DNA of 64,000 bases, taken from Escherichia coli. GTDB lineage: Bacteria; Pseudomonadota; Gammaproteobacteria; Enterobacterales; Enterobacteriaceae. Both the position numbers and the translations under genes were made by a program. Where the stretch lies: the NCBI RefSeq assembly GCF_001677475.2, contig NZ_CP015229.1; one strand, written 5' to 3'. This document shows positions 29,649-31,346 of the stretch, in pieces. Positions within the stretch are counted from its first letter, which is position 1. Every line of letters begins with the position of its first letter. The notes below the pieces were generated by a model that saw nothing but the letters and a program-made list of their open reading frames with translations, made no database searches and had not been told where the DNA came from.

Positions 29649-31346
29649 ATGCAACTGCAACATGGAAAAAATAATACACAGCAATATATATTTGGCGACT
29701 TTGTATTAAAAAACAATGGAATATTATTATTCAAAAATAAAGAATATCATATTCCCCCGAAAGAACTTGGCGTTATCATTCTATTACTTAATGCTGACGG
29801 TGAAATTGTTAGCAAAGAAGAGATTATCGATAAGGTCTGGAGCGCGAGTGTTGCCAGTGATGAATCTTTAACACGGTGTATTTATGCATTGCGCAAACTT
29901 TTGCATGAGAATAAACAGTGTAAGTATATCGAAACGGTCTATGGTCGTGGATACCGTTTTACTGTCCCCATTGTGATTGTAACCGATAATGAACCGGTAA
30001 AGTCGACCACCACTCTTGCCGTTTTTCCCTTTCGTACTGAAGGTTCGATCAATGTTCTAAAACTCCATTACGAACTTGTCCAGGGTCTTTCAAAATATGC
30101 TTTTTGTGGTTTAGATATTTTACCCGCTTCGGTAACGAATGAGGCCAGTGATTTCTCCACCATCCATCAGTTTATCAATAAAACAGGTCCAGAATATTAT
30201 ATTATGGGTCAGGTCGTTCACTATGGTAAAAACTGGCGTTTATTTATTGAATTAATCCATGCCAGAACGCATAAATTGATTGATCATCAAAGTATTGATT
30301 TCAACCCCGACAATCCTCTTTCCGTTCTATTATCACAAGTAATTAATATTCTCATTGAAAAAATACCCAACATTAATTTTAAATCTATTAATACACAACA
30401 AATGCCATCTCTGGATTCTGCTGTTATGTATATGAATGGCAGAATGGAAATGTACCGTTATACACCAGAAAGTTTGAAACGAGCATTAGTAATATTTAGA
30501 GATTGTGTGAGTACGCAACCGCAAAATACCTTGCCCTACTGTTGCCTGGCGGAGTGCCATATATCATTAGCACTCCTTGGCCTCAGTGAACAAAAACAAG
30601 CAATAACTACGGCAGTAACCTCCATTGAAAAGGCTCTGGAAATTAACCCTTCAAATTCTCAGGCATTGGGTTTACTGGGTTTAATCAGTGGACTAAAAGA
30701 TGAACATTCAGTGTCTAATGTGCTATTTAAACAAGCACATTTACTCAAACCTAATTCGCCAGACGTTTATTATTATCAGTCGCTGTTAAGTTTTTTGAAT
30801 GGCGACCTTGCAAGAGCATTTAATTTAATAGAAAAAAGCATTGCTCTTGAACCAAATAAAATGGGCATAAGCATTCTTAAATTAATTATACTTTATTACA
30901 CATCACCCCTCGATAATGCGATATCTTTTGCGTTAAATCTTAACAGTCAAAACACCTGTAACAATCCAATTATTACCTCTATTCTGGCTATGTTCATGGC
31001 ATTGAAAGGACATAATGACAAAGCCAAAAGTTTATTGCTTAAACTTGAACCTGAACATGGTCTTGATTACACCTGCGTTAACTCGCTTTATACGAAGTTT
31101 CTGATCTATGGCGCATCTATAAAAAATGACATTATGAAGTTACTGGCAAATATTAACACCAACAAAATCAATGGTGTTATTTTGCCGTTGATTTACACTG
31201 TTTATGGTAAAAAAGAATATGAGAAGCGCTGGCAACAATTAATTAAAGATAATGATTTATGGTCAAATGTTTTGCTTCATGACCCCCGTTTGCTCAGTGT
31301 GAAAAATGAATTTAATACTATTGGTGTGATGCGTACTTCTGCGTAA
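29649..31346 (+). CDS. eilA: HilA-like transcriptional regulator (OmpR/ToxR-type winged helix plus TPR-like C-terminal domain)
   Basis: 565 aa (HilA is about 553); N-terminus FGDFVLKNNGILLFKNKEYHIPPKELGVIILLLNADGEIVSKEEIIDKVWSASVASDESLTRCIYALRKLL is an OmpR/PhoB-type DNA-binding domain with no receiver domain; long helical C-terminal part; preceded by a 200-bp AT-rich spacer. Confidence 0.75.
   Translation: MQLQHGKNNTQQYIFGDFVLKNNGILLFKNKEYHIPPKELGVIILLLNADGEIVSKEEIIDKVWSASVASDESLTRCIYALRKLLHENKQCKYIETVYGRGYRFTVPIVIVTDNEPVKSTTTLAVFPFRTEGSINVLKLHYELVQGLSKYAFCGLDILPASVTNEASDFSTIHQFINKTGPEYYIMGQVVHYGKNWRLFIELIHARTHKLIDHQSIDFNPDNPLSVLLSQVINILIEKIPNINFKSINTQQMPSLDSAVMYMNGRMEMYRYTPESLKRALVIFRDCVSTQPQNTLPYCCLAECHISLALLGLSEQKQAITTAVTSIEKALEINPSNSQALGLLGLISGLKDEHSVSNVLFKQAHLLKPNSPDVYYYQSLLSFLNGDLARAFNLIEKSIALEPNKMGISILKLIILYYTSPLDNAISFALNLNSQNTCNNPIITSILAMFMALKGHNDKAKSLLLKLEPEHGLDYTCVNSLYTKFLIYGASIKNDIMKLLANINTNKINGVILPLIYTVYGKKEYEKRWQQLIKDNDLWSNVLLHDPRLLSVKNEFNTIGVMRTSA

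Follow-up and report, generated by a model that had tools for sequence, protein, structure and literature searches.

A 64,000-nucleotide stretch of Escherichia coli contig NZ_CP015229.1 (RefSeq assembly GCF_001677475.2), referred to here as the window, carries a regulator gene at positions 29649-31346 that sits behind a translocon operon and converges on a large adhesin gene. This locus raises two questions, namely which regulator the gene encodes and what in turn controls it. Concerning the first, the evidence as a whole is best explained by eilA, which encodes the HilA-family activator belonging to the eip (selC-B) island of E. coli, and we hold this identification with high confidence. eilA is already known, and its name, annotation and published regulatory role all precede this analysis. 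The gene was named, annotated and studied from 2004-2006 onwards, and surveys of E. coli genomes routinely list it among their markers of virulence. As a finding, the identification adds nothing new and serves as a positive control for reading raw sequence: an earlier first-pass annotation, made by a model from the letters of the window, had recovered the architecture, the family and the published regulatory role. Its interpretation is supported and already known, and the experiments it proposed are largely published. Concerning the second question, the eilA promoter carries a conserved box, ATGAGCG-NN-TTTTGATA(G/T), common to eicA-eipBCD, ygeF-ygeG-ygeH and at least five scattered effector or effector-like genes.

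Identity and conservation of the regulator gene

The predicted 565-aa product was recovered as an intact plus-strand open reading frame (ORF) with an ATG start. The HilA architecture read from its sequence was upheld by the NCBIfam HilA/EilA equivalog model (NF009037), which gave a score of 951 bits, well above its cutoff of 589, and aligned residues 1-552 with profile positions 2-553 of 553, i.e. over its full length. At the DNA level, eilA was matched, with 95-98% identity, in 730/5426 complete E. coli genomes and, among the matches listed, was annotated as eilA with air/eaeX or iatC as its neighbour. Almost all matching records (727/731) fell within the 95-99% nucleotide-identity band, at or above the 95% taken to define an eilA orthologue, and an identical protein is on record (NCBI ANO91617.1, on 50 contigs). 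Amongst the top matches listed, no complete E. coli genome was more than ~98% identical to the window at 15804-19571, 29449-31400 or 58529-62000.

The gene lies between eipD and the convergent air/eaeX, within the yicS-nepI interval and near selC, matching its placement in strain 48 and in enteroaggregative E. coli (EAEC) 042. It directly follows sicA-, sipB- and sipD-like genes, an association with type III secretion genes of the type found in SPI-1 (Salmonella pathogenicity island 1), and its relatives adjoin iagB and prgH-orgA genes. EilA of EAEC 042, encoded by the same gene at the same locus (eipD-air), shares 561/565 residues with the window protein (four substitutions, N9T, S381C, N503S and D534E; 97.0% nucleotide identity), and in E. 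albertii the island is syntenic and the protein 76% identical. The GC content of eilA was 35.6%. The ratio of non-synonymous to synonymous substitution rates (dN/dS) was 0.021 in the comparison with 042, 0.05 with strain 48 and 0.06 with E. albertii (overall 0.02-0.07). These low values indicate that eilA is maintained by selection and is not decaying. The gene is under strong purifying selection.

The published function is that of the 042 allele, whose product is 99.3% identical to the window protein. In later summaries of the work of Sheikh et al. (2006), EilA activates eicA-eipBCD, air/eaeX, eivF and eivA in EAEC 042, the last two belonging to ETT2, the second type III secretion system of E. 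coli, which is unlinked to the eip island, and eilA or eaeX mutants show reduced adherence and reduced biofilm (PMC4210603, PMC7058095, PMC11068852). Genetically, the eip operon, air and two ETT2 genes lie downstream of EilA. A Salmonella hilA mutant regains invF transcription and the production of SipA when supplied with either EilA or its paralogue YgeH from 042 (PMC4210603). The regulation of both the translocon operon and the adhesin gene, which the first-pass annotation had proposed for a 'candidate master regulator', is thus already published for 042 EilA; 'candidate' amounts to a rediscovery and 'master regulator' may overstate the case, as considered below.

A conserved box upstream of eilA and eicA

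The box was found by comparing the upstream regions of eilA and eicA via shared 10-mers. Written as the pattern AAAATGAGCGNNTTTTGATA and allowing up to three mismatches, it occurs six times in the window against 0.08 expected (Table 1), and a 50-kb housekeeping control held zero copies at up to two mismatches. The eilA box is unchanged in EAEC 042. In E. albertii, 17/18 positions of the eilA box are identical, compared to 55% across the remaining intergenic region, and the corresponding values for the eicA box are 18/18 and 48%. In islands of E. fergusonii and Yersinia, one-mismatch copies stand 85-95 bp upstream of hilA-like genes that adjoin iagB and prgH-orgA and encode proteins 51-54% identical to EilA. 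In a variant island (L005; 57% identical protein) the box is present upstream of the chaperone gene. ETT2 of EAEC 042 (L007) carries one perfect copy (17725-17741, +) upstream of ygeF-ygeG-ygeH. Elsewhere in 042 (L012, NC_017626.1 4300000-4349999), copies at 25513-25529 (-), 37634-37650 (+) and 41986-42002 (-) precede an ShET2/EspL2-family gene (one mismatch), a pentapeptide-repeat gene (one) and a gene annotated 'type III effector protein' (two), respectively. This distribution in the window and in 042 looks like a regulon signature, and the box is very probably a functional cis element of some kind. At up to three mismatches, no copy was found upstream of ETT2 eivF or eprH, or of air; therefore one box cannot explain all EilA-dependent genes.

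The hilA-like genes of E. fergusonii (L003, 10001-11701) and Yersinia enterocolitica (L004, 10001-11701) head an SPI-1-like order of hilA, iagB, a LuxR-type regulator gene, orgA and prgK-H, with large pentapeptide-repeat genes nearby. The E. fergusonii prgH is apparently split and the Yersinia island is broken by insertion sequence elements.

Within the window, a perfect box, ATGAGCGATTTTTGATAG, precedes each of two paralogous genes (60273-60289 and 61878-61894, both -). These genes, at 58630-60156 (-) and 60370-61677 (-), are inserted between uhpA and ilvN and encode proteins with 26% identity (E 9e-26), which had no match in Pfam, NCBIfam or PDB sequence searches. We regard the two paralogues as candidate ETT2 effectors. 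The segment is present in 641/5426 complete E. coli genomes, where the products are 'hypothetical protein' among the matches listed, and the annotated gene at the second position in EAEC 042 is much shorter (160 aa). The orphan box near selC (20319-20335, -) has one mismatch and no credible ORF downstream, and in strain 48 it lies beside a rhuM fragment. It may be the remnant of a lost selC-A island gene.

A candidate EivF site and its proposed place in the EilA circuit

The eilA box is identical to the Salmonella sicA promoter element TTGGGCGTTTTTTGAATG at 14/18 positions. The stretch TGGGCGTTTTTTGAATGTT was found between spaS and sicA in Salmonella enterica subsp. arizonae and diarizonae; in the diarizonae locus it lies 89 bp before the sicA start and is followed by TTTAAT after 20 nt. 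Compared to the MxiE box of Shigella, whose full consensus is GTATCGTTTTTTTANAG, the eilA box agrees at 12/16 specified positions, including all four essential ones, whose equivalents at eilA are 29563 (G), 29567 (T), 29569 (T) and 29573 (A). The MxiE box spans 17 bp, 33 bp upstream of where transcription starts; its specified positions include G1, G6, T7-T13, A14 and A16, the essential ones being G6, T10, T12 and A16 (PMC3299695). At Salmonella sicA, the -35 region of the promoter is overlapped by the InvF site (PMC7595419). The distance from box to -10-like hexamer is 19 nt at eilA and 20 nt at Salmonella sicA, and the MxiE-box geometry likewise matches, taking the eilA start as predicted. 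The three elements are alike in length (17-18 bp), in a central T-run within a ...CG-T6-7-(G)A.AG core, in lying ~20 nt before a -10 or -10-like hexamer and in preceding chaperone/translocon and effector genes. They differ in the 5' half, which reads TGAGCG here, GTATCG in Shigella and TGGGCG in Salmonella, and the box carries a G at MxiE position 13, unlike the MxiE box.

In Salmonella, the counterparts of eivF and eprH, namely invF and prgH, are classical direct HilA targets. There the path runs from HilA to invF, after which the sicA promoter becomes the target of InvF together with SicA (PMC4210603, PMC7595419). The target set of the box, its absence from eivF and eprH and its likeness to the sicA element and the MxiE box make an EivF site the most likely reading. 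By this analogy we lean towards a site for EivF, the ETT2 homologue of InvF and MxiE, acting with a class II chaperone, either EicA or YgeG. In the accessible literature, we came across neither a binding motif described for EivF nor, within a spacer of ~200 bp, a report of an MxiE/InvF-type box before a hilA-type regulator gene.

Several points weigh against this assignment. It is made by analogy only, and the ETT2 genes concerned (eivF, ygeG and the secretion apparatus) lie outside the window. TGGGCGTTTTTTGAATGTT is presumed from its position to be the InvF site. Amongst the boxes of eilA-type genes, the counterpart of G6, an essential base in the MxiE box, varies (G, A, T or C). No box was found in the 136-bp spacer before the eilA-like gene of L005, and the region upstream of C. 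violaceum cilA held only loose look-alikes; the association of the box with hilA-type genes is therefore not universal. Finally, EivF with YgeG failed to activate two MxiE-box promoters (PMC9241512), a result that would fit the different 5' half of the eilA and eicA boxes.

The strongest alternative, which we consider unlikely though worth keeping in view, is that EilA itself, or YgeH, binds the box, with eicA and the effector genes as direct targets and eilA autoregulated. A winged helix would then occupy two 11-bp direct repeats (aTGAgcg-tttt / tTGAtag). The box does contain two TGA triplets 11 bp apart, one helical turn, a repeat spacing that is the usual layout for OmpR/PhoB-type proteins, and the box-bearing eicA-eipBCD operon is reported to be EilA-dependent. 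However, eivF and air are reported to be EilA-dependent too and, like eprH, lack the box at up to three mismatches; EilA and YgeH act on Salmonella invF (PMC4210603); and the closest relatives of the box, the sicA element and the MxiE box, serve AraC-type activators. In addition, it is a different word, TCATCA, that is common to the upstream regions of air, eivF, eprH, eilA and eicA.

TCATCA occurs seven times on the sense strand of these five upstream regions against 0.76 expected (0/2000 shuffles), for a word that was chosen post hoc, and zero times on their antisense strand. At eilA it forms part of the 10-mer TTTCATCACA, shared with the eicA upstream region (24223-24232) and conserved in E. 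albertii as TTTTCATCAG. As read from sequence, the motif may be a HilA-type (EilA/YgeH) site, and we list it as a weak candidate. The air and eivF upstream regions also share GAATCATCA and TAATCATG.

If the box is an EivF site, EilA would act on the eip genes via eivF. Its effect on eicA-eipBCD would be largely indirect, through EivF and chaperone at a box overlapping the -35 region, whilst eilA would have an activator-dependent promoter of its own and EivF would act back on eilA, and on ygeH through ygeF-ygeG, in a positive feedback. By the same analogy, eilA may not simply stand at the top of a linear cascade, the box giving it a feedback and a regulon role; this we advance tentatively, as plausible but somewhat short of probable. 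It is in this sense that 'master regulator' may overstate the position of EilA: the box suggests, again by analogy, that the translocon genes are controlled via EivF and that eilA itself lies downstream of that step. Salmonella hilA is driven by HilD, HilC and RtsA, of which HilC and HilD may be Salmonella-specific (PMC7232297), unlike eilA, whose upstream region carries the InvF/MxiE-type box.

Should the proposal hold, both HilA-like regulators of E. coli would be in positive feedback gated by free chaperone and hence by secretion activity, and the box would define an ETT2 regulon that includes the two uhpA-ilvN paralogous proteins. We know of no defined regulon and no confirmed effectors for ETT2. 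A shared box would offer an easy means of listing the genes under ETT2 control and of testing whether the system is active.

The probable eilA promoter and predicted transcript ends

The first-pass annotation gave eilA a promoter of its own within an AT-rich spacer of about 200 bp. The eipD-eilA spacer is AT-rich against the window (32.7% versus 49% GC), yet it is ordinary within the island, where the mean is 37% and 19% of island windows are equally low; the length was confirmed and the composition turned out to be unexceptional for its surroundings. The stem of the terminator-like hairpin that follows eipD is kept in E. albertii. Downstream of the box, the -10-like hexamer TATTTT places the predicted eilA transcription start near 29605-29607. 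A green fluorescent protein (GFP) reporter carrying 500 bp upstream of eilA, a region that takes in the spacer, was active in blood isolates of sequence type 69 (ST69), with a late log peak and stronger expression in LB:DMEM than in LB (PMC7058095), and in plain LB eilA is not expressed (PMC4210603). The active reporter supports a separate promoter, as do the hairpin and the conserved box with its hexamer.

These observations bear on a further alternative, that eilA lacks a separate promoter and depends for its transcription on read-through from eicA-eipBCD. The gene does lie on the same strand as eipD and 202 bp downstream of it, and a sigma-70 consensus scan of the spacer returned zero plus-strand sites. 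Activator-dependent promoters normally have no -35 match, and for this reason we do not take the scan as evidence against an eilA promoter. Set against read-through are the hairpin with its T-rich tail after eipD, the conserved box of activator type, followed at the right distance by a -10-like hexamer, and the 500-bp fragment from a related strain that drives GFP (PMC7058095), and we judge it improbable.

At its 3' end, the perfect palindrome described between the convergent eilA and adhesin genes is present, with folding energies of -23.4 kcal/mol (+ strand) and -22.6 kcal/mol (- strand) (z ~ -7). The T-run looked for in a terminator was found in the air direction only. Transcription of eilA would end at this palindromic terminator, shared with the convergent air.

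Function or decay of the system

Another alternative, that eilA is the non-functional leftover of a decaying system, ETT2 being degraded in most E. coli, is very improbable here. ETT2 attrition is widespread (PMC7058095, PMC11068852), ETT2-secreted proteins went undetected in ST69 strains (PMC7058095) and ETT2 is not part of the window. However, eilA is full length with a dN/dS of 0.02-0.07, the eicA, eipB, eipC, eipD and air genes are all intact in the window (eipB is frameshifted in strain 48) and the eip island is reported to accompany intact ETT2 (PMC7058095, PMC11068852).

Protein architecture

The first-pass annotation had described an OmpR-type winged helix joined to a TPR-like C-terminal domain, with no receiver domain, and Pfam, PDB searches and an AlphaFold2 (AF2) model agree. 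The Pfam scan matched Trans_reg_C strongly at residues 31-104 (E 8e-16) and TPR weakly at residues 306-425. In PDB sequence searches, the N-terminus matched CadC, ToxR and response-regulator DNA-binding domains, the nearest solved ones being those of ToxR and CadC, whilst residues 320-405 matched engineered or consensus TPR proteins. Between these parts, the AF2 model has a central beta-alpha-beta region with three long strands, for which a Pfam search (residues 121-238) gave no match; one distant relative bears the JGI name 'TolB-like protein / wHTH / PilF', a hint only as to this domain. EilA is a soluble one-component activator with a ToxR/CadC-type winged helix. It would bind DNA through this winged helix at promoters such as those of eivF and air, and the TPR superhelix and central domain would form its regulatory or protein-interaction part.

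That EilA is instead an ordinary response regulator or a membrane-bound ToxR/CadC-type sensor can be dismissed: its winged helix most closely resembles those of ToxR and CadC, but it has neither receiver nor transmembrane segment and its full-length family match is HilA/EilA. For the response regulator, the NCBIfam/Pfam search found no receiver domain with its phospho-acceptor aspartate, the winged helix begins at about residue 12, and response-regulator models match only via their C-terminal DNA-binding part. For the sensor, no hydrophobic or transmembrane segment was found in EilA; where ToxR and CadC combine a transmembrane helix with a periplasmic sensor, EilA has a cytoplasmic TPR domain instead.

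Salmonella HilA shares the winged helix, the absence of a receiver, the TPR tail and the NCBIfam equivalog family with EilA, although sequence similarity is moderate (37%; PMC4210603). HilA is encoded within SPI-1 beside iagB; eilA, by contrast, occupies a separate island at a distance from apparatus genes, behind the translocon operon and beside the adhesin gene. YgeH of ETT2, a HilA-family paralogue in the same strains, likewise complements hilA, and its gene is downstream of the same box. However, the window protein scored 229 bits against the YgeH model, far below the cutoff of 800, and YgeH is shorter (458 aa) and, unlike EilA, expressed in LB (PMC4210603).

Island context and neighbouring features

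The gene order in the window is yicI, yicJ, tRNA-Sec, setC, yicL, nlpA, yicS, eicA, a 60-aa ORF, eipB-eipC-eipD and eilA, followed by air on the opposite strand and then nepI, which is the published selC-B/eip island order. Coordinates are given in Table 1.

Table 1 Features of the eilA locus and copies of the conserved box in the window.
Feature	Position	Strand	Description
eilA coding sequence	29649-31346	+	HilA/EilA family transcriptional regulator
Shine-Dalgarno AAGGAG	29637-29642	+	6 nt 5' of the eilA ATG; kept in E. albertii
Winged-helix DNA-binding domain, OmpR/ToxR-type	29682-29981	+	EilA residues 12-111, N-terminal
Central alpha/beta domain	30009-30362	+	EilA residues 121-238; AF2 model; no family match
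C-terminal TPR-like superhelix	30411-31313	+	EilA residues 255-555, ~300 residues
Box ATGAGCGTTTTTTGATAG	29557-29574	+	75 bp upstream of the eilA ATG; candidate InvF/MxiE-class (EivF + chaperone) activator site
Box ATGAGCGAATTTTGATA	24306-24322	+	61 bp upstream of eicA
AAAATGAGCGNNTTTTGATA site	24303-24322	+	61 bp before eicA
AAAATGAGCGNNTTTTGATA site	29554-29573	+	75 bp before eilA
AAAATGAGCGNNTTTTGATA sites	60273-60292, 61878-61897	-	Each precedes a hypothetical gene in the uhpA-ilvN interval
AAAATGAGCGNNTTTTGATA degenerate copy	60321-60340	-	
AAAATGAGCGNNTTTTGATA orphan copy	20319-20338	-	Near selC, between tRNA-Sec and setC
TTTCATCACA motif	29537-29546	+	10-mer containing TCATCA
TCATCA	29539-29544, 24182-24187, 24225-24230		Also in the air upstream region, 40200-40401 (-), and in the L007 eivF and eprH upstream regions
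eipD-eilA spacer	29447-29648	+	202 bp; 190/202 positions identical to EAEC 042
Terminator-like hairpin after eipD	29478-29500	+	10-bp stem, T-rich tail; -16.1 kcal/mol, z -4.4
-10-like hexamer TATTTT	29594-29599	+	19 nt 3' of the box; conserved in E. albertii; read from sequence
Perfect palindrome	31356-31385	.	Stems of 13 bp, loop of 4 nt; flanked by the stops of eilA (31346) and air (31398)
eicA-eipBCD chaperone/translocon operon	24384-29446	+	ORFs, family matches, synteny; EilA dependence from literature
eicA	24384-24881	+	Chaperone; SicA/LcrH-SycD family match
60-aa ORF	24891-25073	+	Between eicA and eipB
eipB	25129-26910	+	SipB-type family match
eipC	26923-28053	+	Translocon operon
eipD	28097-29446	+	SipD/IpaD family match
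air/eaeX	31398-40199	-	2933 aa; inverse autotransporter adhesin, Ig-like repeats; reported EilA-dependent

The 60-aa ORF is a 'hypothetical protein' in strain 48 and is annotated as frameshifted in EAEC 042; we know of no counterpart between Salmonella sicA and sipB. The air/eaeX product is shorter in the window than in EAEC 042 and strain 48 (~3806 aa in both), and the repeat region of the gene has 59-63% GC within an island of ~37% GC. Variation in the number of Ig-like repeats of air/eaeX has already been described (PMC7058095). Further downstream, an insertion between ade and uhpT (46608-52812) is absent from EAEC 042. This included genes for a LacI-type regulator (-), a phosphotransferase system (PTS) cellobiose-family IIC component, a glycoside hydrolase family 1 (GH1) beta-glucosidase and a LamB-type porin, and the segment looks like an ordinary beta-glucoside utilisation cluster.

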